Part shown: positions 11,056 to 57,443 of the stretch, in pieces | Layout: each line of letters opens with the position of its first letter | Numbering within the stretch: the stretch's first letter is position 1 | NCBI GenBank assembly: GCA_965249615.1 | Contig: CBDFMI010000006.1 | Coordinates: forward strand, 9,933 to 73,932 | Length of the DNA stretch: 64,000 nucleotides | Reading direction: 5' to 3' | Source: a bacterium | GTDB taxonomy: Bacteria > UBA8248 > JACPRG01 > G963555815 | Translations under genes and position numbers: made by a program | Notes under the pieces: model-generated | The model's input: the letters and a program-made list of their open reading frames with translations, nothing else | The model's database searches: none | What the model was told of the DNA's origin: nothing

Positions 11056-11056
11056 C

Positions 11057-11467
11057 TTAACTCCCCAAGAGGGTCTTACGGCTCACGGGCGCAGGGCCGG
11101 TTATCCCGAGGGGACCCGTAAAGATCGTCGCCGCCCTAGCCCCCTTTCTCCTTCTGGCATCTTCCCGGGACTTCCGGGCGGCCTCATCGGCCCTTCCCTC
11201 AACGTCTGGCGGCGCTGCAGGCAGTGGCGGCGCCTTCTCGGCAGGAAGATTCGCCAGCCTGCCCCGAAGTTCCTCCGCGTTGATGGTGTTTCGGCTTCCG
11301 ACCTCCTGAAACGACGAGGGCCCGATGCGCCTTACCCCTGCCCGGACCATTTCATCGTCTGAGAACGCCACAAAGGACTCTTGCTTGAAACGAAGGGGTT
11401 CGGTCAATTTCGAGCCGTAGTAACCTCGAGGGATTCGAGGACTTCTAGAACCTCCAAAAATTGACAT
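11057..11467 (-). CDS. hypothetical phage-associated protein (136 aa)
   Basis: ORF directly downstream of the terminase large subunit on the same strand. No recognisable domain. Confidence 0.4.
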   Translation of the reverse strand: MSIFGGSRSPRIPRGYYGSKLTEPLRFKQESFVAFSDDEMVRAGVRRIGPSSFQEVGSRNTINAEELRGRLANLPAEKAPPLPAAPPDVEGRADEAARKSREDARRRKGARAATIFTGPLGITGPAPVSRKTLLGS

Positions 11468-11479
11468 TGTCTTCCTTTC

Positions 11480-12900: not shown

Positions 12901-13497
12901 GGGGGTGTCCCTCCTTCAGATTCCCATCCGCGCCCACAATCTGGATGGAAACCGAAATGTCTTGGCTTGGGTCCCCTTCGAACCCACCATGCTCAACGAG
13001 CCACTTGAGCGCGCCCATCCTGTCCTGCGCCCTCTGGGGAACATAAGTCTTGCTCCTCTTCCCACTGTGGTCGAAGGCCACTTCATAAACCGTGTCGGTG
13101 GCGATGGCGTGGATCATCGGGACAATCTTCTCACCGTTCTGCCCAGTGAACTCCTGGATGATCCCCTGGAGGGTTTCGCCCTTGAGAGGCCCATGGGGAC
13201 CGTAGGCTGTCCGGCGAGTTCTCTTCCGGCCGATCTTCCAGATCCTCGACCCCGCCGGGGACAAAGATGAAGTCGTTGGGGGAGATGGTGGGGTCTTTCA
13301 GAATGGCCCGCGCACTCTGGACCAAGAGAAAAACGTCAAGAACCATCGGCCGAGCCCCCTTGTTCCGCAACCGGGACATCCGGCCGATGTCCATTCCGCA
13401 CTCCCGGGCAAGGTCGCCCCCCGGTCACGTTCCGAGACTTCAGAAAATAGTCAAGACGGAAACCGTCTTCCATATCCTGAAGGGGTCCGGCCATCAT
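12794..13497 (-). pseudogene. probable terminase small subunit / HTH protein spread over three frames
   Basis: MMAGPLQDMEDGFRLDYFLKSRNVTGG (frame 1), then DLARECGMDIGRMSRLRNKG... (HTH-like, frame 2), then ...KGETLQGIIQEFTGQNGEKIV...RAQDRMGALKWLVEHGG... (frame 3). The switches coincide with the C6 run 13417-13422 and the C/G runs 13250-13260. Confidence 0.4.
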
Positions 13498-14127
13498 TCC
13501 TTGACCTTTCGGTTCGAAAATTGGTGCGGGTTCCCCCGCCTACCTGGGGGCGATGCCCAATACCTTCGGACGTTGCGCCGTCTAGGCTTCATCCTGTCCG
13601 TGGGGACTCTTGGCCGTCGCCGCTCACGAGCCACCTACCACCGCCCCGTCCAGAGCATCCACACGAAAAAGCGAAACTTATGCCAAAATGACGCCGTCTT
13701 CCGCTTGATTTTCATGCCCACTCGATGACGTGAACTTGGCATCCAATACCTCATATCAATATTTCCTATTTAAAAAATGACAGCCGACTTGCTGTCTGTC
13801 AAGGAAAATTATCGCCGTCTGGACAGCGGGAAAATCACAACGGGTTGGGGTGAAAATAAATTCAGGACCTATCTGATGGGGGTGCCCGGGACCCAATGAC
13901 TGTCAACGTCAACCAATACCCCATGACGGACCCTATACGGGAATAAGCAAAAACGGAAAAACTCTCAAATTGCGCGGATAGGTTCCCATAACGCGAAGGG
14001 CCGCCCCGAAAATCCGGGGGGTCAGTTCCTCAATTTTTCCCCAGAAGGGGATTGATAATCCGCCGGACCCCAATTCTACGAAAACCCAACCTCCTTGTAA
14101 AACAAAGCTTCTAAAAGAAATTCAACC

Positions 14128-14207
14128 GCTTGCCCGATTTGCCGGATTCCGCCGGCGTTCGCCAAAGACCGCTGAATACCGCCCCGGTTTTCACAGTTTG
14201 TTCACAG
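14128..14207. repeat. module-A left-end block: 59-nt conserved block plus tandem TTCACAG heptamers
   Basis: 14128-14186 matches the reverse complement of 24493-24551 with one mismatch by eye. TTCACAG at 14190-14196 and 14201-14207 (11-bp period). Confidence 0.8.
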
Positions 14208-14225
14208 CAAAAGGAGGATGACTCC

Positions 14226-14366
14226 ATGGCAGAGGCCACCTATGGGCCCGCGCTCGAGTTGGCCATCAAGAATGCGGAGGACGACGTGGTAGAGCTTGAC
14301 TCACAGATGAATTGGTGGCTGGCAGGAGGGGTGTTCGCAACCCACATGAAGCGGGAGACGCCATGA
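14226..14366 (+). CDS. small chimeric protein (46 aa): TYGPALE-type N-terminus fused to a membrane-protein N-terminus
   Basis: AAGGAGG RBS. MAEATYGPALELAIKNAEDDVVELDSQ matches the 68-aa protein at 24071-24277. The following MNWWLAGGVF matches the start of the 55-aa protein at 23692-23859. Confidence 0.45.
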   Translation: MAEATYGPALELAIKNAEDDVVELDSQMNWWLAGGVFATHMKRETP

Positions 14367-14656
14367 GAATTCCCAAGAAGGTCAAGATCGGTGGCCTTGT
14401 TTATGAAGTCGTGTTCGATGCGAAACACTGCGTTGCTCAGAGTGTTTACGGGCAAGAGAGCGCATACAGGCAGAAGATATTCTTGGATCCAAATGTGCCA
14501 AGGGACAGGCAAGAGGAAACCTTTATCCATGAGATCCTTCACGCCATAGACCACTCATTTAATTCCAACAAGAATCGTCTTGGGGAGCAGAAGGTTCAAT
14601 TCATATCTTCTGCTCTCTACATGGTTTTGAAGGAAAACGGGATCTTTACGAAATGA
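14363..14656 (+). CDS. small HExxH-motif protein (97 aa), putative metallopeptidase-like
   Basis: ATGA overlap with the upstream ORF. The motif FIHEILHAIDH contains HExxH. Confidence 0.5.
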   Translation: MRIPKKVKIGGLVYEVVFDAKHCVAQSVYGQESAYRQKIFLDPNVPRDRQEETFIHEILHAIDHSFNSNKNRLGEQKVQFISSALYMVLKENGIFTK

Positions 14657-14998
14657 GAACCGTCGGAATAGGATCCGGAACTCAAGCGAGCAGGGGTGGC
14701 AGTGGCTGACGGTTCCAATTAAAAACCCAAACGAGATGCTTTACACCCAAGGAGCTATGACTCTCTTTTGTCTCTGGCAAAAACGAAGGGTTGTCAGTGT
14801 GGTATGGTGCGCCGCCGAGGCGTTCATGCCACTTCGGATTGTGGGGTGAGACGCATCCTGATAAGGGATCAGATTCCCAAATGCAAGGTTTTTTATACAG
14901 ATTCTATTTTTTGGTTTTATTCCAACACTTTGCGGCGGCTTCTCGGGCTATCTCAGAGAGCCGTTTCTTGCTCAATTTCTTCGCCGACGGGGGTTGCC

Positions 14999-15238
14999 GT
15001 GAAAAAGATTCTAACGGACGAAGAAGAACACAGAGACAACAGGACATTCGTTCTGGCTCATCGGGCGTGTCTCGAAATCAACCCCACCCATCCCGACAAC
15101 GTTGCAGAGAATTTGGTGGCGTTGGTGCAAACCTGCGAATCGGCAGTTAAAGAAAAAGACCTCGGTAGACTGATTACGAGAGTTGGAATTATTGGAGAAG
15201 TCCTCGCCCGCATGGGTGCGGTGAAGGAGGGGGGATGA
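14999..15238 (+). CDS. hypothetical protein (start uncertain)
   Basis: ORF ends in an ATGA overlap with the next gene. A GTG start at 14999 is assumed, because the upstream part of the computed ORF looks non-coding. Confidence 0.3.
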   Translation: MKKILTDEEEHRDNRTFVLAHRACLEINPTHPDNVAENLVALVQTCESAVKEKDLGRLITRVGIIGEVLARMGAVKEGG

Positions 15239-15348
15239 GACCCCGGGAGTATTGCCCCGCTTGCGGGTGTGTCCGTGAGGTCGTCCGAATCAAGGGCAAA
15301 GACTACTGCGCGGAGTGCAAGACGCTCCTGGCAACGTGCTGTGATTAA
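15235..15348 (+). CDS. 37-aa zinc-ribbon protein (CxxC...CxxC)
   Basis: MRPREYCPACGCVREVVRIKGKDYCAECKTLLATCCD. A paralog lies at 23449-23562 (MTPQEYCGTCGCIREVIRIKGKDYCAECKTLLATCCD). Confidence 0.6.
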   Translation: MRPREYCPACGCVREVVRIKGKDYCAECKTLLATCCD

Positions 15349-15360
15349 GGAGGCGTGCGA

Positions 15361-15546
15361 ATGACCCTCACCCCCCGCCAGAGAGTGAAGGAGTTTTTGC
15401 TGGAGTATGAAGGCAAGCCCTACCGCTTCCCCAACGAAGAAGCGGTGCAAGATTTTGTCACTTGCATGGAAGAAATCAAGAAAGCCGGGGAAACCAGGAA
15501 GGCCATAGAGAGAGCATGGCGTGAGACATTCGATGACCCTTTCTAA
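15361..15546 (+). CDS. hypothetical protein (61 aa)
   Basis: AAGGAGG RBS 7 nt upstream of the ATG. The N-terminus M.L.PRQR is shared with the paralogous position in copy B (23278-23436). Confidence 0.45.
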   Translation: MTLTPRQRVKEFLLEYEGKPYRFPNEEAVQDFVTCMEEIKKAGETRKAIERAWRETFDDPF

Positions 15547-15814
15547 ACGCCGGCGAGAGGTGGCGAAGGCGGTTGATGCCCTTTCTCAGGCAAAACCCAA
15601 GCCGACAAAGGAGGAATTGAAGATGCTTCACGATTTAGAGAATGAAATGGAAACCTACTCGAAAAAAACGAATGAAATTAAAGGTGAAATAAATTCATAC
15701 TCGGCGAATAGCCTGAAACCATCAGGAGACAAGGACACCTTCGAAGCCCTGCTCAAGCGGGCTGTTCAACCTTCAACAATCCCACCAGAAGACGATACAT
15801 CCGATCCGTCATAG
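15521..15814 (+). CDS. hypothetical coiled-coil protein, 3' end probably disrupted by the IS insertion
   Basis: The ORF runs into the IS1595-like element. Its last ~20 codons overlap the transposase C-terminus on the opposite strand. Confidence 0.3.
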   Translation: MRHSMTLSKRRREVAKAVDALSQAKPKPTKEELKMLHDLENEMETYSKKTNEIKGEINSYSANSLKPSGDKDTFEALLKRAVQPSTIPPEDDTSDPS

Positions 15815-16151
15815 ACCTGGTGTTGTGCCGGAAGTCGAACTCGCCCAGGTACTTCGGCAAGTGCTTCCGAGATACGTGGATATGCGTGCTCAGAATGCTC
15901 CGCTTGAGTAGCGACCAGTAGCCGTCAATGCTGTTCGTGTGGCTTTTTCCCCGCAAAACAAGAACATAGTGACCGTAGATCGTTTCGTTAGGTGAGACTC
16001 TACCGTCCAGTCGAGGCAGAAAGACGTTCCAAACAGTCTGATATAATCGACGGACTTTTGTGTGACCAAATAAACCGGCATAGGTCAGAGTGCCATCCCG
16101 CCCGATGCTGATTGAAAAAACCAAGCGACTTCCAAAATCCCATTCAAACAT
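15753..16151 (-). pseudogene. chimeric ORF: unknown ~65-aa N-part fused in frame to the IS1595 transposase C-terminal segment
   Basis: C-part ...RGKSHTNSIDGYWSLLKRSILSTHIHVSRKHLPKYLGEFDFRHNTR is the HTN.IE / FR.N end of the DDE_Tnp_IS1595 domain. The upstream part (MFEWDFGSRLVFSISIGRDGTLTYAGLFGH...) is unrelated. Confidence 0.6.
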
Positions 16152-16248
16152 AATTTCACCATCAGTCTCTGGGACTATTTCAGGGACTCGAACTGTGCCC
16201 AGAAGAAGATTAAGAAACTGCTTGGCGTAGTAATATGTACGGAAGTTC

Positions 16249-17469
16249 CTAGTTTACGGTCTTGAGAATAGCGATAAGATACGCCTGATCCCGATCCCCT
16301 TTCAGGCTGTTACACGCCCCACATAACAGTTGTAGATTATCCAGGTGATCACTCCCGCCCTTGCTCTGGGGCACAATGTGGTCAGTGGTGAAATTGCGGA
16401 ATGGAAAGGCCACCTTGCAACCTCCGCACAGTCCTTCCTGCTTCCCGAATAGAAGGTGCTTGTGGGTCCGATAACTGGGGAGCTTTCCATGATCCGTGCG
16501 CTTAGGAATATCGGATCGTCGGTTCGGTTTGAAATTGTGAAACAGGTCAATCTCCTTGCGGATTCGGACCTGCACAAGATCGGCCGCCTTCTTAGATAGG
16601 TCTATGCCCACCCATTCCCGACCAAGGCGCTCAGCCGCCACGCAAGCTGTAGCGCATCCGGCGAACGGGTCCAGGATCATATCTCCCTCATTGCTACTGG
16701 ATTTGATGATACGATCCAGGAGCTTGAGCGGCTTCTGAGTGGGGTAGCCGACGCGCTCTGTTTTATCAGAAGGCATGATCGGCTGAATAGTCCACCAATC
16801 CTCAGGATGTTTCCCGCGCTCATTGGGCCTGTAGCCTTCATATACTTTGTTGGAGCGGTAGGATTTATCATAGCGACTCGCGCTCGAATTCAGAACGTCA
16901 TCCGAATATGGAATCCTTACGGCATCGACGTTAAAGGTGGCGGTCTTGGTCTTTGAGTACCTGAGCAGGATATCGTGCTTGCGGGCAAAATCGGCTTTAG
17001 GTACGCCGCCTCCGCGATAGCACCATACAATCTCATTCCTGAAACGCCCCATTCCGAACACAGCATCCATGAGCAGCTTGAGATAGTGGCTTGCCGTGGG
17101 ATCGCAGTGTAGATAGATTGATCCTGCGTTCCTCAAAATCCGCCTCATCTCAAGCAGCCTCACGGCCATCATGATGAGATACGACTTCATGCCCTTGCCG
17201 TGCGCCTCGCCAGTCGCCCCGACGACTGCATACACAGCCGGGTTTTGCTCGGCTATTTCCCCGTGCCACGCATCGTCCACGTCGTCCAGGGTCCAGGTAT
17301 CCTTGAAGGCCGCTCCCGCTGCCCCAGAGCCGATAGGGGCGCTATAGGTGCGGTTACTGTTGAAAGGCGGGTCCAGGTAGATCAGATCCACACATCCGCT
17401 GTTCATGCCGCGCATGATGTCGAGGTTGTCACCCGTCCACATCGTTCGGTTTTTCCAGTTGGGTTCCAT
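16249..17469 (-). CDS. DNA methyltransferase (beta-class N6A/N4C, PF01555-like) fused to a C-terminal HNH nuclease domain
   Basis: Motif IV DLIYLDPPFNS lies near the N-terminus and motif I ILDPFAGCATACVAAERLGREWVGIDL lies later. The C-terminus CGGCKVAFPFRNFTTDHIVPQSKGGSDHLDNLQLLCGACNSLKG is an HNH motif. Confidence 0.85.
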   Translation of the reverse strand: MEPNWKNRTMWTGDNLDIMRGMNSGCVDLIYLDPPFNSNRTYSAPIGSGAAGAAFKDTWTLDDVDDAWHGEIAEQNPAVYAVVGATGEAHGKGMKSYLIMMAVRLLEMRRILRNAGSIYLHCDPTASHYLKLLMDAVFGMGRFRNEIVWCYRGGGVPKADFARKHDILLRYSKTKTATFNVDAVRIPYSDDVLNSSASRYDKSYRSNKVYEGYRPNERGKHPEDWWTIQPIMPSDKTERVGYPTQKPLKLLDRIIKSSSNEGDMILDPFAGCATACVAAERLGREWVGIDLSKKAADLVQVRIRKEIDLFHNFKPNRRSDIPKRTDHGKLPSYRTHKHLLFGKQEGLCGGCKVAFPFRNFTTDHIVPQSKGGSDHLDNLQLLCGACNSLKGDRDQAYLIAILKTVN

Positions 17470-18186
17470 TCAATCATCATACCATTTGTCGTGACGGATG
17501 ACCCTGTGGGGGAGAACCTTCGACATCCCGAGGTAGCCCTTGTACTCGTCCGTGATGAGCTCCGATTCGTGTGTCTTGATTCGATCCAGGACAAAGGCTC
17601 TCAGATTCTTGGCCTTCAAGCTCTTTTTGTTCACGGCTTTGGCCGTCACCCTTCCCCCTCGCTCCACAGCGCCGACTACAGGAGCCTTATCTGTTCCGCG
17701 GCCCCGCTTTGACGTGTCACCCCTCCGGCCTTTCCATTTCCGGGGCTTGCCGCCCACATAGGTTTCGTCCATCTCCACGATTCCGGTGAGCATATTCCTG
17801 TGTTCGCCCTGGGTCATGGACTTCCGTATCTGCATGGCGATGCGCCAGGCCGTGTTCTTGTTCACCTTGAGATCGCGCGAGAGTTGAAGGGCGGAAAGCC
17901 CCTTCTTGGCGTTCAGAATGAGATTGATTGCGAGAAACCATTTCTGAAGGGGCATATGCGTATGGTGAAATATGGTGGCGACTGTAACACTGAAGCCCGT
18001 TTTGCACTCGTAGCATCGCCACCGGTGCTGATTGCGAGCTACGTTGATGGAGCCGCAATAGGGGCAGCAAGGGTTGTCCCCCCATCGGGCTTTCTCAAGA
18101 TGTTCGATGCAGGATTTTTGGTTTGGAAACCGTTCGAATATGTGTACAATATCCGCGACACTCCGCTCCTTGTTGGGGTTAACCGC
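17470..18186 (-). pseudogene. IS1595-family transposase, N-terminal zinc-ribbon plus first part of the DDE domain (truncated, no canonical start)
   Basis: ...CIEHLEKARWGDNPCCPYCGSINVARNQHRWRCYECKTGFSVTVATIFHHTHMPLQKWFLAINL...VEMDETYVGGK...ITDEYKGY...HRVIRHDKWYDD*. The stop comes just where the HTN.IE segment is expected. The only in-frame ATG/GTG/TTG is ATG 17955, which lies downstream of the zinc ribbon. Confidence 0.75.
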
Positions 18187-18589
18187 TCATCCTGACGATG
18201 AACAATATACCCCTTCAAGGGCGGTGTGTCAAGACCTTAAAATGGGAAATTCCGATCTCTAAACACTCTCCGCTAGTCTCCTTACGTTTCGTTCCCAATC
18301 AGCATTCAATCCCTGGCCAAATCTAATCATTACCTCTAATAGAAGCTCATTTGTGGAAGTCAAAACCATAGCGATAAAGGAAAGCAGCCCAGTCCATCAA
18401 TCCGGAAAGGTTGGAGTCGGGCGAGGTTAGTTGGGGCCCGGACAATGAGCCTCCGCGCCAGATGGATCCCTCCTTCACAGCCGCACAGGCGTATGACTTT
18501 TTAGCTGGAAGGGGATTTCTGGGCCCGCCGCCGTCTCGGACTTGAGGGCTCTCTGCACTCCTTCACGACTGACCCCATCACTCCGCCGT

Positions 18590-18970
18590 CTCAGGTATAA
18601 GACCTTAAAGACCTTTTAGACCTTATAAGGTCCTAAGACCTTAAAGACCTAAAGACGTTAAAGGGTCTATACCCTCTCACGCTCATCCCCTCAAAACCTC
18701 AGACTTTCATCCTCGATGCCCTCTTACTCGACCTCCTGAGCCCTTGCCTAAATTCACCCATCCCCCGTCCCATACCTTCAGACCTGCCTAAAGGCCAAGG
18801 TCTCAAGAGATTCAGGACTGAATGGGTGAAGGGAATGAGATAAACGCGAGAGCCGAGAAAAACGTTATGGCTCGGACGGACGGCCGAGGTCCGCGCCGCC
18901 TTGCCACCCCTCCCCCCGTGGGGGATGCAGAGCCCCGAACCCCCCCCTCCGTTCACAGTTCGTTCACAGT
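18590..18970. repeat. left arm of large inverted repeat (end of module A)
   Basis: The reverse complement of 19100-19465 aligns along the whole arm. 18771-18929 vs 19142-19301 shows one substitution and one 1-nt indel by eye. Confidence 0.85.
18596..18672. repeat. array of ~8 short AAGACC-type repeats, about 9-bp phased (iteron-like)
   Basis: AGACC at 18600, 18609, 18618, 18636 and 18645; AGACG at 18653. Inverted copies near 18629 and 18663. Confidence 0.8.
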
Positions 18971-18983
18971 CCGGGGGACGTAG
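18822..18983 (+). CDS. possible conserved small ORF (53 aa) inside the repeat arm
   Basis: MGEGNEINARAEKNVMARTDGRGPRRLATPPPVGDA... The first 36 codons equal those of the mirror ORF 19091-19249 except for one synonymous GAA/GAG change. AGGA lies 4 nt upstream of the ATG. Confidence 0.3.
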   Translation: MGEGNEINARAEKNVMARTDGRGPRRLATPPPVGDAEPRTPPSVHSSFTVRGT

Positions 18984-19020
18984 GGCAAAAAAGGGTTGAT
19001 AGCAAAGGGAATCCAGGTGG

Positions 19021-19049
19021 GACGCAGGGGATTATCAATCCCCTGCGTC
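19021..19049. repeat. perfect 13-bp inverted repeat with a 3-nt spacer at the centre of the island palindrome
   Basis: GACGCAGGGGATT-ATC-AATCCCCTGCGTC. Confidence 0.9.
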
Positions 19050-19090
19050 TTCCCTGAGTTCGGTTGACTGTCAACGCCTTTCAGTTCTAC

Positions 19091-19249
19091 CTAGCCCGGA
19101 GTGTGAAGAGAATGTGAACGGAGGGGGGGAGTTCGGGCCCTTGCATCCCCCACGGGGGGAGGGGTGGCAAGGCGGCGCGGACCTCGGCCGTCCGTCCGAG
19201 CCATAACGTTTTTCTCGGCTCTCGCGTTTATCTCATTCCCCTCACCCAT
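19091..19249 (-). CDS. possible conserved small ORF (52 aa), mirror copy
   Basis: MGEGNEINARAEKNVMARTDGRGPRRLATPPPVGDA... then diverges from the copy at 18822-18983. Confidence 0.3.
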   Translation of the reverse strand: MGEGNEINARAEKNVMARTDGRGPRRLATPPPVGDARARTPPLRSHSLHTPG

Positions 19250-19465
19250 TCAGTCCTGAATCTCTTGAGACCTTGGGCCTTTAGGCAGGTCTGAAGGTAT
19301 GGGGCTGAGAAGGTGGGAATCCGGGCAAGGGCTCATGGGGTCGAGTAAGAGGGTCAGAACGTGGGACGGAGGGTATAAAAGCCTTTAGGACCTTAAAAGC
19401 TCTATAACGTCTTTAGGTCTTTAGGACCTTATAAGGTCTTTAAGGTCTTAAGGGTCTTATACCTG
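19100..19465. repeat. right arm of large inverted repeat (end of module B)
   Basis: See the left arm. Includes GTGTGAA 19101-19107 and ATGTGAA 19112-19118. Confidence 0.85.
19385..19462. repeat. mirror array of GGTCT/GGTCC (AAGACC) short repeats
   Basis: aggaccttaaaag...gtctttaggtctttaggaccttataaggtctttaaggtcttaagggtctta. Confidence 0.8.
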
Positions 19466-19936
19466 GGGCGGATTCTTCGGGAAGGTGGAGCGGTTCATCC
19501 TGGCCCGGAGGAATTGCCAAGCGAAGGACGGGCCCCAGACAGATGGGCCCTTGGGTGGAATTACAAGCTGGCCCTGGCGGGCGCGAGACCTCAAAACCTC
19601 ACTCCCGGTGATGGGCGGCCCAGAGGGCTCCGTGTTAATGGATGAGCCGTTGTCTAGGCGGACCACGTTGAAGGGCGGCGAGCCCTTCGGGCTGATGGGC
19701 CACCTGTCAGTCAAGTATTTCCTGAAGCTGAAGGGGCCCAAGTTGAACACGCGGGCGCGGCAGACTCCGTTGAAATTGTCGCTGATATAAACCCTCTCTT
19801 CTTTCCCCCAACGCCAAGGGCGACCATGCCACGCGAGGCGGTAGGGGAACCCGCCCTTGAACCTGTAAAGGCCCTCAAAACCCTTGAACATCTGGGCCGT
19901 CTTCCCCTCGCGGCGGTGGCGCGTCTCAATTCTCAT
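19457..19936 (-). CDS. hypothetical basic protein (159 aa) ending at the repeat array
   Basis: Last gene of the RHH-led minus-strand operon. Trp/Arg-rich. No motif recognised. Confidence 0.45.
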   Translation of the reverse strand: MRIETRHRREGKTAQMFKGFEGLYRFKGGFPYRLAWHGRPWRWGKEERVYISDNFNGVCRARVFNLGPFSFRKYLTDRWPISPKGSPPFNVVRLDNGSSINTEPSGPPITGSEVLRSRARQGQLVIPPKGPSVWGPSFAWQFLRARMNRSTFPKNPPQV

Positions 19937-19947
19937 CGTTCCCCCTT

Positions 19948-20133
19948 TTAGCCTTCAGAATAGAGCCACGGGGCGATCTTCAAGGCGAGCCACGTCCGGG
20001 CCTCGTTGATTCTGCCCTTGATTCTCCGCCAGATGGTGGGCTCTGTCGGGGAGGTCTTCAAGAACGGGGATTCCCCGACGTTATTGGCAAGCTCCTGCGC
20101 CCATCGCTCGTTGTAAAACTTGTGAATTATCAC
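19948..20133 (-). CDS. hypothetical protein (61 aa)
   Basis: Start overlaps the stop of the RHH gene. Confidence 0.4.
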   Translation of the reverse strand: MIIHKFYNERWAQELANNVGESPFLKTSPTEPTIWRRIKGRINEARTWLALKIAPWLYSEG

Positions 20134-20345
20134 CGTCTCTCCCTCCTGAGCCAGTTCTTCACGATTTCCCGGATCAACGCGCTTCTGGAGATTCCCCGCT
20201 TCTCCGCCGCCCGGTCCAGAGCCCCCAGGTCCCCGTCTAGGAACGCGGCCTTTATCACCTGAAGCATGGGGCCGCCTGGGCCTGAAAGGGGCGGACGCCC
20301 CGCGCCCGGCATTTTTCCACCTCGTCCGTTGGGCTTCTTCTTCAT
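20130..20345 (-). CDS. ribbon-helix-helix (CopG/Arc-like) DNA-binding protein
   Basis: ...VIKAAFLDGDLGALDRAAEKRGISRSALIREIVKNWLRRE is a typical RHH core, preceded by a Gly/Pro/Lys-rich N-tail. Confidence 0.6.
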   Translation of the reverse strand: MKKKPNGRGGKMPGAGRPPLSGPGGPMLQVIKAAFLDGDLGALDRAAEKRGISRSALIREIVKNWLRRERR

Positions 20346-20396
20346 ACCCCTGGAATATGGCCTAAATCTTTTTTGATTGCAAGGCCCATTTTTCTA

Positions 20397-20426
20397 TTGA
20401 CACGATAGATTAGATGACCATATATT
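20397..20426 (+). promoter_or_regulatory. sigma70-like promoter in the divergent region between the RHH gene and the 216-aa gene
   Basis: TTGACA (20397-20402), 17-18 nt spacer, ATATAT/TATATT (20420-20426). Nearby TTCTATT direct repeats. Confidence 0.45.
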
Positions 20427-20477
20427 CTATTTAGGTTTTGGGGTTGGCCCAGGCCGCAACGAGAAGGAGGACTGACA

Positions 20478-21128
20478 ATGGGGATCACGATTCATTTTAA
20501 GCTCAGGTTTAAGGGGTCAGAAGAAGAGGCAAAAGGAACCCTGGAAAAGCTCAGGGTTGAGGCAAAGGCTCTGCCTTTTGCCGATGTCTCTGACATTCAC
20601 CCCCTCTGGCCGGATTTCGATAATTGTCCGGAGCGGGACAGGTGGGCGTCAATCCAATATCAAACCTACAAAGAAACCCCCATGACACTTGAAGAAGCTG
20701 TGGGGTTTGGGTGGTCCCAGGATAGATGGGAAAAAGAAAAGCCCGTCTCTAGCATCGGGATTTCCCCTTCAAAAGGGTGGTATTTCGAGGCCGATCCAGG
20801 CGAGGGGAGCGAGCCCGTCAACGTTGGTCTAGCCATCTACCCCCGCAGTCGCATCTGGAAAGGCGGGGCCTTCTGCAAAACCCAATACGCAGAGGACTTT
20901 TTCGCCGCCCATGCGTTGGTGGTGGCCTTGCTGGACCTATGCCAACTCCACGGAATCCTTGCTTCGGTTCACGATGAGGGCGGCTATTGGCGGAGCCGAA
21001 ACTTGGGCCAACTGGCGGCCGCTTTCGGGGAAAGCACGGCCATGATTTCCAGTTTCGCCAGAAAGCTCCAAGGACAATTTGGAAAAGAGAATGTTGGCGG
21101 TAAGGCTGTGGAGTTATTGGCAAGTTAG
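20478..21128 (+). CDS. hypothetical protein (216 aa)
   Basis: GAAGGAGG RBS. Protein-like composition. No domain recognised. Confidence 0.55.
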   Translation: MGITIHFKLRFKGSEEEAKGTLEKLRVEAKALPFADVSDIHPLWPDFDNCPERDRWASIQYQTYKETPMTLEEAVGFGWSQDRWEKEKPVSSIGISPSKGWYFEADPGEGSEPVNVGLAIYPRSRIWKGGAFCKTQYAEDFFAAHALVVALLDLCQLHGILASVHDEGGYWRSRNLGQLAAAFGESTAMISSFARKLQGQFGKENVGGKAVELLAS

Positions 21129-21181
21129 GGGCCTTAAATTGGGGCCGGGCGATGGGGTCCGGCCCTTTGGAGGATTCTAAA

Positions 21182-21388
21182 ATGGGAAAGATTCTAAGGT
21201 GCCCCGAATGCAAAGAGGAAGACGCGAACATCCAGGAGGTTGCGAAGGTCTGGAATGAGGTCAGCCTGGATGAAGACGGGGCTGTGGTTTTGGATCGTCA
21301 GTCCGGCGACCTGGAAAATATCGGGTGGCTTTGCGCTAGTTGTGATGCGGAGTTTCACAACCTCGACCTTTTGATCGTCAACGCCTGA
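21182..21388 (+). CDS. zinc-ribbon protein (68 aa)
   Basis: MGKILRCPECKEE...WLCASCDAEF has two CxxC pairs. GGAGG lies upstream of ATG 21182. Confidence 0.5.
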   Translation: MGKILRCPECKEEDANIQEVAKVWNEVSLDEDGAVVLDRQSGDLENIGWLCASCDAEFHNLDLLIVNA

Positions 21389-21400
21389 AAGGAGGAAGAA

Positions 21401-21595
21401 ATGGCAACCCATGAGATCACGGGGAAAGAATTGGATGTCTGCATTCCAGAAGAAGGGGCCTGGGGCGAGCTCTTAGGCGTGGGCCCCGTCCTGGTGTTAA
21501 TCCCTTCAAACCCCAACGGCCGCATCCGAGCCTTTGAGTCTCACAACGTGGACTCTGGGGAATTGGTGACGGCAATCGTGGACGAGGGGAAATAA
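21401..21595 (+). CDS. hypothetical protein (64 aa)
   Basis: AGGAGGAAGAA RBS. Last gene before the terminator. Confidence 0.45.
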   Translation: MATHEITGKELDVCIPEEGAWGELLGVGPVLVLIPSNPNGRIRAFESHNVDSGELVTAIVDEGK

Positions 21596-21617
21596 GGCCG
21601 CTTGTGCCCTTGCATCT

Positions 21618-21649
21618 GGGGGAGGGGGGAGACCCCTTCCCCCTTTTTT
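21618..21649 (+). terminator. rho-independent terminator
   Basis: G-rich stem GGGGGAGGGGGG...CCCCTTCCCCC followed by TTTTTT (21644-21649). Confidence 0.6.
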
Positions 21650-21669
21650 GTGCCCGTGTCGGCTCCCCC

Positions 21670-22029
21670 CTACATAATCCCCGTTGGGATCTTGTTTCGG
21701 ATCGTCTGCAATTCCTCATTGATCTGGCCAAGGTCCCCCGACATCGTTTTGAGGACCCCCAAGGTTTCACGCTGGACCTCAACGAAAGTCCCCAGGACCT
21801 CGCGGAGTGCCCGCGCTTCTTCAAGATGGACGTTGAGGGCCCCATAGATCGCGGTCGCGGCCCCGGCGACCCGGCGGACCTCTATCGTCTGTCTTTCGAT
21901 GGCCCGGACGTGGGCAAGATGGATCTCACAGGCCATCCCCACGTCGTCCCGCTTTTGCCTTACAGTCAACTGGAAGGCCCTGAGCCAATTTTCCAGCGTG
22001 TCCAAGGTGTGGGGCTTTGTCTCCTTCAT
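21670..22029 (-). CDS. hypothetical coiled-coil protein (119 aa)
   Basis: ORF with protein-like composition. Last gene of the long minus-strand run of module B. Confidence 0.45.
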   Translation of the reverse strand: MKETKPHTLDTLENWLRAFQLTVRQKRDDVGMACEIHLAHVRAIERQTIEVRRVAGAATAIYGALNVHLEEARALREVLGTFVEVQRETLGVLKTMSGDLGQINEELQTIRNKIPTGIM

Positions 22030-22073
22030 CCTTTTCCCTCCTTCCCATCAAGCGGGTATCCCATCACCCGGTT

Positions 22074-22454
22074 CTACCTGAGCCCGTGGTCGTGTTCCCT
22101 CTTGGGCCCATCAGGCCGATCTTGCCGGAGTGCGGCCTTTAGTATTTCTTCGGCTTCAAGCACAAGGCTCTGCTCAAAGTCTGGCGAGCCCAACCACTCT
22201 TCAAGTTTCTTTCTCGCCTTCTCGGCCTCCGTCTCAAGCTCCGCCAGGAGTTGCCCGCACGTCTTCCAGGTGGTCCCCATCACCCCGCCCTCGTCCAAGT
22301 CCATCCCTAAAGCTAGACACGCCCTCTTCCTGGCAGACCTTAATGATTTCTCGGTCTGATCACACCCATCGCCCAGGTTGGCAATCGCCAGTTCCATGGC
22401 CGAGATGCTTTCATGGCAAGCGGCCGCGAGTTCGTTTATTGAAAGCTCGCCCAT
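22074..22454 (-). CDS. hypothetical protein (126 aa)
   Basis: TGATG overlap with the upstream 47-aa ORF. Confidence 0.45.
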   Translation of the reverse strand: MGELSINELAAACHESISAMELAIANLGDGCDQTEKSLRSARKRACLALGMDLDEGGVMGTTWKTCGQLLAELETEAEKARKKLEEWLGSPDFEQSLVLEAEEILKAALRQDRPDGPKREHDHGLR

Positions 22455-22597
22455 CACTCCCCCTTCGCCTTTTCAACTGCCCGTTTAAGAATTAGATGGG
22501 CCTCAACCACCTTGTCGTCGTCCGGGTTGATTCCGCCGAGCCACTCTTTGAGTAAATCCATGGCCTCTTCAGCATCATCCAGTAATTCGTTGCCCAT
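22454..22597 (-). CDS. hypothetical protein (47 aa)
   Basis: MGNELLDDAEEAMDLLKEWLGGINPDDDKVVEAHLILKRAVEKAKGE. GGAGGG RBS. Not in the ORF track (under 60 aa). Confidence 0.35.
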   Translation of the reverse strand: MGNELLDDAEEAMDLLKEWLGGINPDDDKVVEAHLILKRAVEKAKGE

Positions 22598-22727
22598 CAA
22601 GCCCTCCTAGTTCCAGTTCGCCGGGTGGCTCTTCAAGATATAGACGTCAATGTCTATCTCTTCGCAGTTGCATTCTTCCAGGGGGACGTCGTTCTTCCCG
22701 TAGGGGCAATCGTCGTCATGCACAAGT

Positions 22728-22919
22728 TCAAGCTCGACCTCGCTCCCCCCTCCACCTATAAGAAAACACAAAAACAAAAAGCACCCCCACCCCCGCGACC
22801 ACAGCCACCGGGAGGACGTTCACCACGAAAAGGAACCCGATCAACCGCATGAGGGCGTCCCAGGGGGCGGCCTGGATTGCTTGCCATCCAAGAGACAGCC
22901 CTTCCACAAACCCCATCAC
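22728..22919 (-). CDS. small membrane protein (63 aa, two hydrophobic segments)
   Basis: ...LIGFLFVVNVLPVAVVAGVGVLFVFVF... ATGA-type overlap with the upstream ORF. Confidence 0.45.
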   Translation of the reverse strand: MMGFVEGLSLGWQAIQAAPWDALMRLIGFLFVVNVLPVAVVAGVGVLFVFVFSYRWRGERGRA

Positions 22920-23200
22920 GCCTCCTTTTTCCTTCTCTCTGTTTCTTCCTCTATGGCCTTATCACAACAAACCGGGGACCCGTTTTCATCTAAGGCCGCC
23001 TCCCACCCGTAGCCACAAAATGAACACTCAATACTGGTGTCCCAAACAACATGGACATCAGATATTTCATCAACGTGCCTATTTATTTCGGCCCGGAGCT
23101 TTTGGCAGTTCTCGCGTGATTCATCTGGCGTGGGAGTGGAAATCTTGTTTTCGTAGGGGTAAACCACCGCCCTAAAATTACTCCTAACCTCCTTTTTCAC
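22916..23200 (-). CDS. hypothetical Cys-containing protein (94 aa)
   Basis: ...IECSFCGYGWEAALDENGSPVCCDKAIEEE. Confidence 0.45.
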   Translation of the reverse strand: MKKEVRSNFRAVVYPYENKISTPTPDESRENCQKLRAEINRHVDEISDVHVVWDTSIECSFCGYGWEAALDENGSPVCCDKAIEEETERRKKEA

Positions 23201-23277
23201 TCACGCCTCCCTTCCGGCTTGGGTGAGGGTGTAGGTCACAAAAGAATATCTGTATGTTTGGTTGGTTGAAATGAGCC

Positions 23278-23436
23278 TTATTCTGTCCATCCAATAAAAT
23301 TCTTCCGGCGGAATCCGAACTTTTTTTCATCACAACCCCCAACCAAATAGGCCGTGCTTGTGTCGTGGTGAAAGACTAACTCCCACCCCTTCTTCATCAA
23401 CTCCACGACCTCTCGCTGGCGGGGGGATAGGTTCAT
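23278..23436 (-). CDS. hypothetical protein (52 aa)
   Basis: MNLSPRQREVVELMKKGWELVFHHDTSTAYLVGGCDEKKFGFRRKNFIGWTE. AAGGAGG RBS shared with copy A. Confidence 0.4.
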   Translation of the reverse strand: MNLSPRQREVVELMKKGWELVFHHDTSTAYLVGGCDEKKFGFRRKNFIGWTE

Positions 23437-23448
23437 TCGCAAGCCTCC

Positions 23449-23562
23449 TTAATCACAGCACGTTGCCAGGAGCGTCTTGCACTCCGCGCAGTAGTCTTTG
23501 CCCTTGATTCGGATGACCTCACGGATACACCCGCAAGTCCCGCAATACTCCTGGGGGGTCAT
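23449..23562 (-). CDS. 37-aa zinc-ribbon protein, paralog of 15235-15348
   Basis: MTPQEYCGTCGCIREVIRIKGKDYCAECKTLLATCCD. Confidence 0.6.
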   Translation of the reverse strand: MTPQEYCGTCGCIREVIRIKGKDYCAECKTLLATCCD

Positions 23563-23660
23563 GGCATCTGCCCTACCGCAAAGGCCGCCCCACCACGACA
23601 GCAATTACTTCCCCACCCCTCACAAGCCGTGTGCAGTTCGTCGCTGGTTAGTTCACCCAT
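23559..23660 (-). CDS. hypothetical Cys-rich peptide (33 aa)
   Basis: MGELTSDELHTACEGWGSNCCRGGAAFAVGQMP. ATGA overlap with the next gene. Confidence 0.3.
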   Translation of the reverse strand: MGELTSDELHTACEGWGSNCCRGGAAFAVGQMP

Positions 23661-23691
23661 CACGGCAACCTCCGTAGGATGAAGGTCTCCA

Positions 23692-23859
23692 TCAGAACGC
23701 CATCCCGAAAGAGAAAGCGGCAAGGAAGGCAAAGCCCCAATAAACCGACACCCTGAAAATGTGAAAGCCCCGGTTTTCGGGCGGGTTGAACTGCATTGAC
23801 GAGACCATCCAGAGACACGCCTGAAGCGAGAAGACGCCCCCGGCAAGCCATAGGTTCAT
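23692..23859 (-). CDS. small membrane protein (55 aa)
   Basis: MNLWLAGGVFSLQACLWMV...VYWGFAFLAAFSFGMAF has two hydrophobic segments. Confidence 0.45.
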   Translation of the reverse strand: MNLWLAGGVFSLQACLWMVSSMQFNPPENRGFHIFRVSVYWGFAFLAAFSFGMAF

Positions 23860-24074
23860 AGGTCCTCCTTGGGCTGGTCCCCAAAGAAAAGGTCCCAATG
23901 GTAATAGACCTCGTTTTGGGCGTCCTTGAAGGATCGGGCGTAGAAATCCGCAACGTGATGCCAGCCCTCATCCTCCTTCATCTTCCTGTAGTCTGAGCAG
24001 ATTGCGATGCGGTCCCCTGTGCCGGACCCCTTGTCTATCCAAAGGGAGAATCTAGACTTTTCTTTCTCGCTCAT
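23856..24074 (-). CDS. hypothetical protein (72 aa)
   Basis: ATGA overlaps at both ends. Confidence 0.45.
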   Translation of the reverse strand: MSEKEKSRFSLWIDKGSGTGDRIAICSDYRKMKEDEGWHHVADFYARSFKDAQNEVYYHWDLFFGDQPKEDL

Positions 24075-24277
24075 CCCGTCTCCTTTTTGTCCCTCTTGGG
24101 CTCCGGCTCTGCGAGGTCGAGGGTGTGCCTCATGGATCTCAGGCCGCGCTTAACCTTGGCCCTCTTGGCCATCAGGTCCTTGATCTGTGTGTCAAGGTCG
24201 GCCACGTCGTCCTCCGCGTTCTTAATGGCTTGCTCGAGCGCGGGCCCATAGGTGGTATCAGGGTCTTTCCCCATCAT
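24071..24277 (-). CDS. hypothetical coiled-coil protein (68 aa), TYGPALE family
   Basis: MMGKDPDTTYGPALEQAIKNAEDDVADLDTQIKDLMAKR... Its N-terminus is shared with 14226-14366. Confidence 0.5.
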   Translation of the reverse strand: MMGKDPDTTYGPALEQAIKNAEDDVADLDTQIKDLMAKRAKVKRGLRSMRHTLDLAEPEPKRDKKETG

Positions 24278-24288
24278 TCCTCCTTTCG

Positions 24289-24453
24289 TTATTCCTCGAT
24301 CACATTCTCATCGCGTGAGAGGTTCGTAGGGGATGGCTTGGGAGCCTCGTAGCCTTGGAGCCTCTCCCGCATACAGCTTTCATGGATCGGGGTCCCAGAC
24401 TCCGGGACCTCAACGGGCTTGCCACAATGGGCACACTTGGTCGTCGTCTCCAC
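24289..24453 (-). CDS. hypothetical small Cys protein (54 aa, GTG start)
   Basis: AAGGAGG RBS then GTG. VETTTKCAHCGKPVEVPESGTPIHESC... Confidence 0.4.
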   Translation of the reverse strand: METTTKCAHCGKPVEVPESGTPIHESCMRERLQGYEAPKPSPTNLSRDENVIEE

Positions 24454-24471
24454 GTCTAGGTCCTCCTTTGA

Positions 24472-24551
24472 GTGTGAAGAAAGTGTGAAGATCGGGGCGG
24501 TATTCAGCGGTCTTTGGCGAACGCCGGCGGAATCCGGCAAACCGGGCAAGC
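24472..24551. repeat. module-B left-end block (mirror of 14128-14207)
   Basis: GTGTGAA at 24472-24478 and 24483-24489. The 59-nt block lies at 24493-24551. Confidence 0.8.
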
Positions 24552-24647
24552 ATTTGAATGTCCGGGGATAACCTTGTTTTACAAGCGGGTGGGGATTTCG
24601 TAAAATGGGGGTCGAGACGACTTAAAATCCTCGAGGGTTTAGTCCCT

Positions 24648-24676
24648 ATGTGGGTTCGACTCCCACCCCGGCACCA
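24648..24676 (+). other. tRNA 3'-end-like fragment (T-arm plus acceptor strand plus CCA-like end), putative att remnant
   Basis: GTGGG-TTCGACT-CCCAC is a perfect T stem-loop, followed by CCCGGCACCA. I could not fold a matching 5' acceptor strand, D-arm or clean anticodon arm upstream. Confidence 0.45.
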
Positions 24677-24733
24677 TAAAATCAACGGGTTACGTGGAAT
24701 CTGTGAACCGAGGACCCACTGCAACCTTTTCCA

Positions 24734-24762
24734 TTGACGTGAAGGTCTTGCTCGGGTAGACT
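24734..24762 (+). promoter_or_regulatory. sigma70-like promoter candidate for carAB
   Basis: TTGACG (24734-24739), 17-nt spacer, TAGACT (24757-24762). Confidence 0.4.
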
Positions 24763-24808
24763 CCGCGCACTTTAAGCGGAGGTCGACCTTCCGGTCCGGC
24801 TTACCAAA

Positions 24809-25909
24809 ATGAGCACTGGTTCAAACAAGGCAATCCTCGTCCTGGAAGATGGTCGCACCTTCCTTGGCCGGGGCATCGGAGCGGACTCAGACGCCGCCGG
24901 AGAACTGGTGTTCAACACCAGCATGGCCGGCTATCTGGAGATCCTGACCGACCCGTCCTATGTCGGCCAGATGGTCGTCATGACCTATCCTCAGATCGGC
25001 AACTACGGTATTCACCCCGAACAGATGGAATCTGAAAGGTCCGGGGCGGAAGCCTTCATCGTCCGAGAGCTTTCGGCCCCCAAAGGCCATTGGCGCGCCA
25101 CGGGAAGCTTGGAGGAGTTGATGCGGGCTTGCGGCACCCCCGGCATCCACGGGATCGACACTCGGGCCCTGACCCTGCACATCCGCCAGGCCGGGCCTCT
25201 TCGGGCCGTTCTCTCCAGGACGGAGCTTGATCCGAAGCCTTTGTTAGAGCGAGCCCGCTCCCTCCCCCGAACGGACGGTAGGGATCTCGTCTCCGGCGTG
25301 ACCTGCCTGGAGCCCCATGACTTCGGCGCGCCTCCCGGGGCGGGCCGCCCTCTACTGGGGGTCTATGACTTCGGCGTCAAGCGGGCGATCCTGCAACAGC
25401 TTGCAGAATATTTTGCCCTGCGGGTCTATCCGTCCAACGTCCCCGCCAAAGAGGTCCTGGCGGACGGCCCGGCGGCCGTCTTCCTCTCCAATGGGCCGGG
25501 CGATCCGGCGGCGCTCTCCACTCCCATCGACAACATAAAATCCCTCTTGGGCCGTGCGCCCATCGCTGGGATCTGCCTGGGGCACCAGTTGGCCGCCCTG
25601 GCCATCGGGGCCCGGACGTACAAGATGAAGTTCGGCCACCATGGGGGGAACCACCCCGTGCAGGACCTGAGCACCGGGTCAGTTCGAATTGGCGTCCACA
25701 ACCACTCCTTCGCCGTGGATGAGAAGAGTCTTCCGCCAGGGGTCCAGGTGAGCCACCGCAGCCTCAACGACGAAACCTTGGAGGGGCTTGTCTGCGAGGA
25801 CCCTCCCCTCTGGACCGTGCAGTACCACCCCGAGGCCTCCCCGGGACCTCACGACGGTCATGACCTTTTCCCGGCAATGAAAGACTGGCTTCTGAATCGG
25901 ATAGGCTAA
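24809..25909 (+). CDS. carA: carbamoyl-phosphate synthase small (glutaminase) subunit
   Basis: ...GICLGHQLAALAIGARTYKMKFGHHGGNHPV...QYHPEASPGPHD is the class I GATase triad region. Confidence 0.95.
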   Translation: MSTGSNKAILVLEDGRTFLGRGIGADSDAAGELVFNTSMAGYLEILTDPSYVGQMVVMTYPQIGNYGIHPEQMESERSGAEAFIVRELSAPKGHWRATGSLEELMRACGTPGIHGIDTRALTLHIRQAGPLRAVLSRTELDPKPLLERARSLPRTDGRDLVSGVTCLEPHDFGAPPGAGRPLLGVYDFGVKRAILQQLAEYFALRVYPSNVPAKEVLADGPAAVFLSNGPGDPAALSTPIDNIKSLLGRAPIAGICLGHQLAALAIGARTYKMKFGHHGGNHPVQDLSTGSVRIGVHNHSFAVDEKSLPPGVQVSHRSLNDETLEGLVCEDPPLWTVQYHPEASPGPHDGHDLFPAMKDWLLNRIG

Positions 25910-25912
25910 ACC

Positions 25913-57390: not shown

Positions 57391-57443
57391 GGCATTACCC
57401 TTCACAGGATTGGGCCAAGACCGTAGATTCAAGACTACGCTCA

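Follow-up and report, generated by a model that had tools for sequence, protein, structure and literature searches.

Two diverged small-gene modules in mirror arrangement beside a split tRNA-Leu(UAA) gene of an uncultured bacterium

The positions within tRNA genes at which mobile DNA integrates have been sorted into sublocation classes, reportedly by Williams in 2002. In attP, the phage attachment (att) site of lambda, the arm sites lie at roughly -150/-120 and +55 to +85, and the cis-mobilisable elements derived from the integrative and conjugative elements of streptococci are integrase-less and flanked by att sites. Early operons of tiny genes that serve host takeover are known from phages, namely the terminal-redundancy module of SPO1 and the pre-early genes of T5. 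Genomic islands interrupt tRNA genes, of which a displaced fragment remains (Islander, PMC4383910), some phages integrate in a tRNA gene without rebuilding it, among them actinobacteriophages such as Fionnbharth with their tRNA-dependent lysogeny (PMC10865867), and phage satellites include phage-inducible chromosomal islands (PICIs) embedded in their helpers (PMC10111431). Here a stretch of 64,000 nucleotides (nt) from contig CBDFMI010000006.1 of an uncultured bacterium (the window, whose positions are used throughout) was analyzed with respect to two modules of small genes, module A (14046-19017, plus strand) and module B (24633-19053, minus strand), which lie tail-to-tail between a prophage remnant and a disrupted tRNA-Leu(UAA) gene. 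The locus consists of mobile DNA that has decayed and is unusual in being arranged as a mirror image; it is not a new kind of system.

Compared with islands and prophages that carry a tyrosine integrase and use the anticodon-loop sublocation (PMC4383910), the locus is alike in that a tRNA is interrupted at its anticodon loop with a displaced 3' fragment at one end, and in that the anticodon stem, being symmetric, looks like the inverted core-binding sites of an att site, but it differs in having no integrase gene in A or B, no regenerated tRNA in 64 kb, unlike spacers at the junctions and an inverted instead of a tandem pair. With the Fionnbharth-type phages (PMC10865867) it shares a split tRNA, a short common core only and a tRNA that is not rebuilt at the junction, whereas those phages come from an unrelated host lineage and carry an integrase gene of their own together with a replacement tRNA, neither of which was found in A or B. 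Like cis-mobilisable elements and satellites, the modules are small, bounded by att-type arms, seemingly dependent on functions in trans and accreted by or in a prophage (A abuts a late-gene remnant); in contrast to satellites, their orientation is inverted, hallmark genes were not found in A or B, and their mobility is putative. Runs of genes for 37-130 amino acids (aa) with strong ribosome-binding sites (RBSs), many of them encoding zinc-ribbon or coiled-coil proteins without relatives, recall the early operons of SPO1 and T5, but there is no sequence homology to these and A and B lie in integrated, apparently temperate or satellite-type DNA. An initial annotation, made from the letters of the window alone, had found no known element class for the module; the tRNA-Leu junction described below places it with integrase-type mobile DNA in a tRNA gene.

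Collinear inverse homology of the modules

A blastn comparison of 13000-19050 with 19051-26000 gave four matches in all, each reverse-complement and collinear, with expectation (E) values of 6e-18 to 3e-102. From the outer ends inwards these were a first patch at 14049-14218 / 24630-24461 (80% identity, E 1e-37), a second at 14236-14311 / 24255-24180 (87%, E 6e-18), a third at 15217-15385 / 23580-23412 (87%, E 1e-47) and the inner arms at 18586-19017 / 19471-19053 (80% over 434 columns, E 3e-102). A fifth, weak collinear patch was seen with tblastx (14307-14339 / 23859-23827, MNWWLAGGVFA / MNLWLAGGVFS), and a repeat search recovered the identical pairs and added a 158-nt core (18790-18947 / 19124-19281) with 96% identity. 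The inverse homology proposed in the initial annotation, including that outside the central arms, was borne out, all listed patches being present and far beyond chance. Its outermost pair (14068-14215 / 24470-24615) corresponds to the first blastn match, the 59-nt block within it (14128-14186 / 24493-24551) holds exactly one mismatch, and the N-terminus TYGPALE.AIKNAEDDV is common to two small proteins. In the 37-aa CxxC...CxxC open reading frames (ORFs) at 15235-15348 (plus strand) and 23449-23562 (minus strand), the 3' part, the stop codon and the downstream RBS form 71 consecutive identical nt. The inner arms likewise exist, with a length of about 430 bp by blastn in place of the ~370 bp first given.

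Conservation is uneven within and between these patches. Along the inner arms, identity per 40 nt from 18586 runs 85, 75, 45, 70, 75, 97, 97, 100, 93, 78 and 62%. Runs with zero differences between A and B extend over 58-98 nt, include synonymous positions and adjoin unrelated DNA; between the patches, tblastx of A against B gave nothing at E <= 1 beyond those listed, and the two modules are unlike in length and gene set. As the identical runs include synonymous positions, where selection alone would leave differences, they indicate recent exchange or gene conversion between copies and not conservation alone. The best-kept patches are mostly non-coding cis DNA at both ends of each module. Of the causes suggested for them at the outset, cis sites (for the most part) and gene conversion stand and selection acting by itself does not.

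The protein beginning with the TYGPALE motif, used as a marker of the family, had two matches among 5.8 billion proteins, namely itself and P0002 (85% identical), which is encoded on the same 881,271-bp contig outside the window. P0002 is a third copy of the marker protein, and the family is therefore multi-copy in this genome, with at least three copies. Wider searches were negative: megablast of the whole region gave no match in phage and plasmid collections, exact-pattern scans of viral and metagenome contigs for the 59-nt block and the inner core found nothing, and protein-pattern scans for TYGPALE in genome, metagenome and viral contigs retrieved no relatives. Exact look-ups of proteins of the window and of P0002 returned no contigs.

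The tRNA-Leu junction and two related sites

A scan of 185,579 reference genomes with CarA found one close relative, L002, whose CarA is 94% identical (next best 53%). L002 has an intact tRNA-Leu(UAA) gene (9781-9868) directly upstream of carA. Homology between the window and L002 (94.5% over 11.3 kb) begins at window position 24619 with GA followed by CTTAAAA, that is, two bases ahead of the anticodon loop CTTAAAA (24621-24627). The segment at 24619-24676 (plus strand) is the displaced 3' half of tRNA-Leu(UAA), comprising anticodon loop, variable arm, T arm and acceptor-CCA end; its acceptor strand has one C fewer than the gene of L002, for which reason it is regarded as a pseudogene fragment. 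The 5' half is absent upstream of 24619, and the outer end of module B stands in its place. Since the tRNA gene is intact in L002 and the homology of the window starts at the anticodon loop, the comparison of the two sequences establishes that B entered the chromosomal tRNA-Leu(UAA) gene site-specifically at its anticodon loop and that the outer end of B is the resulting junction. Interruption of this kind typifies site-specific insertion at the anticodon-loop sublocation (Islander, PMC4383910) and islands and prophages of integrase type. Accordingly, the A/B pair ends on the right at a tRNA anticodon loop and not at a target-site duplication, and the sole transposase of the pair (IS1595 family, split) belongs to a secondary insertion in A, so that the pair does not have the form of a terminal-repeat transposon.

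Rfam gave no match at gathering thresholds, and its weak hits to tRNA-Sec, tmRNA and Tymo-tRNA-like families at 24587-24676 all represent the tRNA-Leu fragment. A 'tRNA-Leu' called by ARAGORN at low threshold (24588-24675) was rejected because it combines element DNA with the genuine 3' half. An origin of the outer arms from the tRNA promoter or 5' half was also rejected, local alignment being no better than with shuffles (24-34 of 500). L002 has, in addition, a tRNA-Ala(GGC) gene (8720-8795) upstream of carA, opposite in orientation to tRNA-Leu(UAA) and about 1 kb from it. Past L002, hits to CarA were scattered over Planctomycetota, Acidobacteriota, Nitrospirota and other phyla, and the host is a deeply branching uncultured bacterium.

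The homology stops at three sites built as stem / 7-nt loop / stem, with loops starting at 14052, 19032 and 24621. Site 1, the outer junction of A (14036-14075, loop 14052-14058), reads CCCCAGAAGGGGA-TTGATAA-TCCGCCGGACCCC on the plus strand and GGTCCGGCGGA-TTATCAA-TCCCCTTCTGGGG on the minus strand. Site 2 (19021-19049), the joint of the two inner arms, is a central palindrome, GACGCAGGGGATT-ATC-AATCCCCTGCGTC, with 13-bp arms that are perfect but for the middle 3 nt (DNA fold z = -6.3); as a stem-loop it reads GACGCAGGGGA-TTATCAA-TCCCCTGCGTC on the plus strand (loop 19032-19038), and its arm ACGCAGGGGA is identical to the 10 nt immediately 5' of the tRNA-Leu anticodon loop in L002. Site 3, the outer junction of B, reads GTCGAGACGA-CTTAAAA-TCCTCGAGGG on the plus strand (loop 24621-24627), and the intact target in L002 reads ACGCAGGGGA-CTTAAAA-TCCTCGAGGG (plus strand). 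Sites 1 and 2 share 16 identical nt in inverted orientation, GGATTATCAATCCCCT (minus strand at site 1; 14047-14062 / 19028-19043). The outer homology of A ends at the position that matches the tRNA junction of B, yet is joined there to other DNA. The motif GGGGA-N7-TCCCC(TGCGT) is read as the putative core recognition sequence of a recombinase of the family, and the three sites as recombinant junctions. Three candidate origins were discarded: insertion of A in the neighboring tRNA-Ala, as the anticodon loop of tRNA-Ala(GGC) in L002 is unlike the TTATCAA spacer; integration of dif/Xer type, which fits neither the core geometry (13-bp arms, 3-nt center) nor the monotonic cumulative GC skew; and a hairpin telomere or concatemer junction, which would require identical arms. 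A rolling-circle plasmid or filamentous phage was discarded as well, there being no Rep and no genes of morphogenesis size.

The perfect 16-nt inverted repeats flank A in the manner of short inverted crossover sites, and an outward promoter-like TTTACA-17-TA(G/A)AAT is kept in the outer arms of both copies, beside site 1 in A (TTTACA-17-TAGAAT, 14101 to 14073, minus strand, by consensus scan) and beside site 3 in B (TTTACA-17-TAAAAT, 24578 to 24606, plus strand). Both would suit a programmed invertible segment, in which A or the whole pair flips at the 16-nt sites through a recombinase encoded elsewhere and rewires the flanking promoters. This is most unlikely, however, since no invertase or recombinase gene lies nearby, the decayed insertion sequence (IS) and truncated first gene in A suggest degeneration instead of a maintained switch, and the single assembly shows one orientation only.

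The initial annotation had seen in A and B two diverged copies of a small-ORF element, inverted tail-to-tail, which holds, and had attributed them to an old paralogous duplication, which is improbable because the DNA between the patches is unrelated, the outer joint of A differs from that of B and a third copy sits at a different place on the contig. A single module that was long ago duplicated in place as an inverted (palindromic) repeat, with later divergence and with the patches kept by selection or gene conversion, would account for collinear, inverted copies that meet at a palindromic center, and the very high identity of some patches agrees with gene conversion acting between inverted repeats so close together. 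Such a duplication is nonetheless very unlikely: the inter-patch DNA and genes are unrelated and not merely diverged, the modules are unequal in length and unlike in gene set, the duplication would need to stop exactly at the att crossover and gain another spacer, and a further copy, 85% identical to the marker protein of B, favors a multi-copy mobile family. A fold-back assembly chimera had been argued against from the start, and the many substitutions and indels between the arms, together with the unrelated DNA between the patches, make it implausible. In the broader form of a fold-back, or of repeated copies wrongly joined during assembly of the genome from a metagenome, an artefact would draw on the presence of at least three family copies, as repeats can mislead assemblers, and on the break of synteny with L002 to the left of the foreign region. 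It is scarcely credible when arms of 80% identity with many indels and unlike gene content are not producible by a fold-back read, the right junction is base-exact at the tRNA anticodon loop and the contig is 881 kb long.

Arm layout and a proposed history

The outer ('P') arms occupy 14049-14218 in A (plus strand; blastn, motif scans) and 24461-24630 in B (minus strand), and the inner ('P-prime') arms 18586-19031 in A (plus strand) and 19039-19471 in B (minus strand). In the outer arm of A the 59-nt block is followed by the repeat TTCACAGTTTGTTCACA (14190-14206) and then by the RBS of the first gene; in that of B the block lies next to a TTCACA repeat at 24473-24489. The inner arm of A has about eight iterons of 9 bp, AGACCTTAA, at 18598-18665, then the 158-nt core and TTCACAGTTCGTTCACA at 18952-18968, and the inner arm of B has a TTCACA repeat (19102-19118), the conserved core and iterons (19372-19452). 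Folding energies of the 158-nt core were not unusual for a structured RNA (z = -0.9, -2.5). The motif TTCACA-N5-TTCACA occurs exactly four times in the 64 kb against 0.08 expected, and none of 100 shuffles reached four or more. There is one repeat in each of the four arms, co-oriented with its module, and its distance to the loop is 132-148 nt in both outer arms and 64-80 nt in both inner arms. The two kinds of region with a TTCACA repeat have a common order of features, CTTGCC / hairpin / 20-30 nt / TTCACA repeat. A direct-repeat motif at about 130-150 nt from the crossover in one arm and about 65-80 nt in the other, in A and B alike, recalls lambda attP, but the motif sequence is unrelated, and the motifs of A and B are candidate sites whose outer-arm copy, directly upstream of an RBS, may be an operator.

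The reading preferred here, with an even chance of being right, is that A and B are two diverged members of a phage-derived family of small integrative elements, or decayed remnants of such elements, whose att site is shaped like a tRNA anticodon stem-loop. Each module would then consist of an outer arm (divergent promoter region, 59-nt block, TTCACA repeat and first gene) and an inner arm (iterons, 158-nt core and TTCACA repeat). In an excised circle both arms would flank the crossover like P and P-prime of a lambda-type attP, giving a site of about 230 bp with a repeat on either side of the core; the TTCACA repeats would be the foremost candidates for the arm-type sites at which a recombinase or its directionality factor binds, and the iterons may act as an origin or in partition. 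A and B would have been joined inner arm to inner arm at the near-perfect palindromic core by site-specific recombination with the sites antiparallel, an alignment that the symmetry of the core arms and of the outer spacer bases (TT...AA) allows. Either a circular A could have integrated the 'wrong' way round into the junction at the inner end of B, or an integrase-mediated inversion could have taken place between two copies integrated oppositely at two loci. Site-specific recombination is favored because homologous recombination between inverted arms cannot make an inner-arm/spacer/inner-arm joint. Recombination across a non-identical spacer would give heteroduplex products and, after replication, two junctions that differ, as TTGATAA and TTATCAA (same strand) do at sites 1 and 2. 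The recombinase would act, or have acted, in trans from another genomic copy, or would have been lost with a deleted left end. The small genes would be cargo of phage early type (zinc ribbons, coiled-coil proteins, a ribbon-helix-helix regulator and an ImmA-like peptidase), and the near-identical patches would be cis sites and segments lately homogenized by recombination between copies.

Several observations weigh against this preferred reading. The 7-nt spacers differ, being CTTAAAA at site 3 and TTATCAA/TTGATAA at sites 2 and 1, so that a simple history of integration through identical overlaps does not fit; directly repeated identical cores were not found at the two ends, sites 1 and 2 being mutually inverted and site 3 different from both. 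The DNA to the left of site 1 is not a tRNA and has no homology to the module arms. ARAGORN at default settings finds no tRNA gene in the 64-kb window, and hence no regenerated tRNA-Leu, and the 24-nt tRNA 3' end is single-copy in the window even with three mismatches allowed; the second B junction expected of classical integration is therefore missing, and the other end of B may lie outside the window after a rearrangement. The region upstream in L002, including tRNA-Ala, has no counterpart in the window, and this non-syntenic left flank implies at least one further rearrangement. In the outer arms the TTCACA repeat adjoins the RBS of the first gene on its upstream side, where it might just as well serve as an operator for a repressor such as the ribbon-helix-helix protein. 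The family has no relatives in phage, plasmid, viral, metagenome and reference-genome collections that could lend it comparative or covariation support.

Weighing against it as well are the gene searches, which covered 10.1-24.7 kb with essentially all ORFs of at least 100 aa and most smaller predicted genes scanned by Pfam and many by PHROGs and PADLOC. No integrase or recombinase gene, intact or recognizably decayed, was found there or elsewhere in the window, and tblastn with one tyrosine integrase, a weak test, returned nothing in the window. In agreement with the initial annotation, the Pfam, PHROGs and PADLOC scans found no integrase, replicase, capsid or tail gene within A or B, and no hallmarks of satellites (integrase, primase/helicase, AlpA, packaging redirection or helper interference) were detected in either.

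It is rather improbable that A and B go further and are complete integrase-less elements of about 5 kb belonging to an undescribed family, with a lambda-like attP whose TTCACA repeats flank a core mimicking an anticodon stem. Such elements would depend for their mobilization in trans on an integrase that a larger relative encodes, would insert into a tRNA anticodon loop without rebuilding the tRNA and, owing to their nearly palindromic core, would join or flip either way round, which would give the palindromic joint between the inner arms and possibly an actively invertible module.

Gene content, surroundings and significance

The products of A and B are almost all ORFans, with few links, to the phage families phrog_1233 and phrog_23328. 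Module B was initially credited with about 20 tightly packed small ORFs; it has in fact about 15 small genes on the minus strand, most with an RBS of AAGGAGG type, and a three-gene cassette on the plus strand. The main small-gene operon of B (21670-24441, minus strand) holds about 12 genes for 37-127 aa, among them those for the TYGPALE protein (24071-24277), the 37-aa zinc ribbon (23449-23562) and a 94-aa protein (22916-23200, phrog_23328) that is 38% identical to a protein of a 140-kb viral contig. The last three genes of B, also on the minus strand, encode a ribbon-helix-helix (CopG-type) protein (20130-20345; Pfam RHH_1, 3e-07), a 61-aa ORF (19948-20133) and, beside the iterons, a 159-aa ORFan (19457-19936) with no relative in two large protein searches; the latter was dismissed as a Rep or recombinase because of this and because an HUH-type motif is absent by eye.

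The oppositely oriented cassette (20397-21643, plus strand) begins with a near-consensus promoter, TTGACA-18-TATATT (20397-20426), and ends with a GC-rich hairpin followed by a T-run, a terminator (21618-21643). It encodes a 216-aa protein (20478-21128) with the motifs MGITIHY, AFCKTQYA and DEGGYW, a 78-aa zinc ribbon (21152-21388) and a 64-aa ORF (21401-21595). The 216-aa protein gave nothing in Pfam, PHROGs or PADLOC and has distant hypothetical relatives only, forming an uncharacterized family that occurs in other islands; its AlphaFold model was poor (pLDDT 64.7), and a fold search of the PDB was without match. One member of the family, in L084, has a tyrosine integrase, SSB and DUF2958 as neighbors within an island.

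The operon of A (14226-15814, plus strand) has five genes. The first, for the TYGPALE protein (14226-14366), encodes a C-terminal part that resembles a different gene of B, which implies a deletion; it is followed by a gene for an M78/ImmA-like HExxH peptidase (14363-14656; phrog_1233 by PHROGs), the 37-aa zinc ribbon (15235-15348) and two more small ORFs (15361-15546 and 15533-15814). The IS noted in A at first inspection is a secondary insertion (15753-18254, minus strand; Pfam, PADLOC methyltransferase matches, repeats) in which an IS1595-family transposase gene is split by a methyltransferase-HNH gene (Pfam). The transposase pieces lie at 17470-18085 and 15753-16151 (minus strand), with positions 1-107 of the DDE profile at 17470-17955 and 110-153 at 15753-16151, and between them a 406-aa fusion of N6/N4 DNA methyltransferase and HNH nuclease is encoded at 16249-17469 (minus strand). 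Direct repeats of 15 nt lie at 16140-16154 and 17466-17480, 1326 nt apart. Since the two pieces overlap at the H..Y...HTN motif region, they may stem from two different IS copies.

The modules form the right part of a foreign region at about 10.1-24.6 kb, in which a prophage late-gene remnant is followed by A and then by B. Its foreign origin follows from a low GC content (50-58% against 58-65% in the flanks), the remnants of the large terminase (TerL) and portal, the PHROGs matches of A and B proteins and a dehydrogenase gene truncated at the left edge. The remnant, region C (10641-13264, minus strand; phrog_2, phrog_2472, phrog_831 and phrog_332), comprises on the minus strand a possible small terminase (12794-13264), a large terminase frameshifted into ATPase (12148-12900) and nuclease (11480-12151) parts with about 40% identity to phage large terminases by tblastn, a phrog_831 protein (11057-11467) and an N-terminal portal/adaptor fragment of the first ~50 residues (10641-10925). 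Region C is, judged by its genes, a dead prophage. Packaging genes (TerL and the portal fragment) are found only to the left of A, and A and B are without any.

It is possible, if doubtful, that this locus reflects the decay of ordinary prophages, with A and B as early-gene arms of two full-size mosaic temperate phages, one at tRNA-Leu and the other with TerS-TerL-portal, brought together by deletions and by inversion through homologous recombination between related prophages. The central hairpin would then be a terminator at the early/late boundary, the TTCACA repeats with the conserved blocks ahead of them two promoters or operators of a single class (one early, one late), and the patches phage mosaicism. 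Temperate siphoviruses normally have a long run of small genes ahead of terS-terL-portal, and a flipped A would read into the terminase; the shared layout of the two TTCACA regions, the lack of an integrase or replication gene in either 5-kb module and the left synteny break with L002, by which a rearrangement did happen, all accord with this. Homologous recombination, however, gives no joint exactly at the axis of a palindrome with perfect 13-bp arms, and the outer homology of A ends at exactly the base at which B meets the tRNA and carries there the 16 nt of the central hairpin, which suggests that each junction arose site-specifically. That hairpin is also without a U-tract on either strand, and a consensus scan shows no sigma-70-type promoter upstream of the TTCACA repeats.

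The left flank is chromosomal, with genes for a TonB receptor and an ABC transporter, glnA (7677-8912) and a pterin synthase gene (6-pyruvoyl-tetrahydropterin synthase, 9281-9754). At the foreign edge a short-chain dehydrogenase gene (9935-10132) is cut off after 65 aa (Pfam adh_short residues 1-59 only), which implies that a deletion accompanied the insertion or rearrangement. On the right, carA begins at 24809 and carB at 25913, and the remaining window is housekeeping. The outward promoter-like site of B (24578-24606) faces carA across the tRNA fragment, and carA has a promoter-like site of its own at 24734-24762; because the site of B points toward carA, the insertion could change carAB expression. 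A gene for a repeat protein of 524-539 aa (window 55903-57522 / L002 6848-8422) has strong internal DNA repeats with many staggered matches of 65-72%, and appears to represent a repeat-protein family seated at different loci in the two genomes.

If A and B are members of a small integrative-element family, as preferred here, elements of integrase type may lose their recombinase yet retain complete att-site arms, a nearly symmetric core resembling a tRNA stem would permit head-on instead of tandem joining, and copies of a family may homogenize their cis sites while the gene cargo turns over completely. Models of site-specific integration are not overturned by this; the value of the locus lies in a worked example and in a source of candidate att sites and early-gene ORFans. 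In a lineage that is uncultured and branches deeply, it marks a tRNA-Leu(UAA) gene that has been disrupted, and nearly every gene of the elements is an ORFan there.

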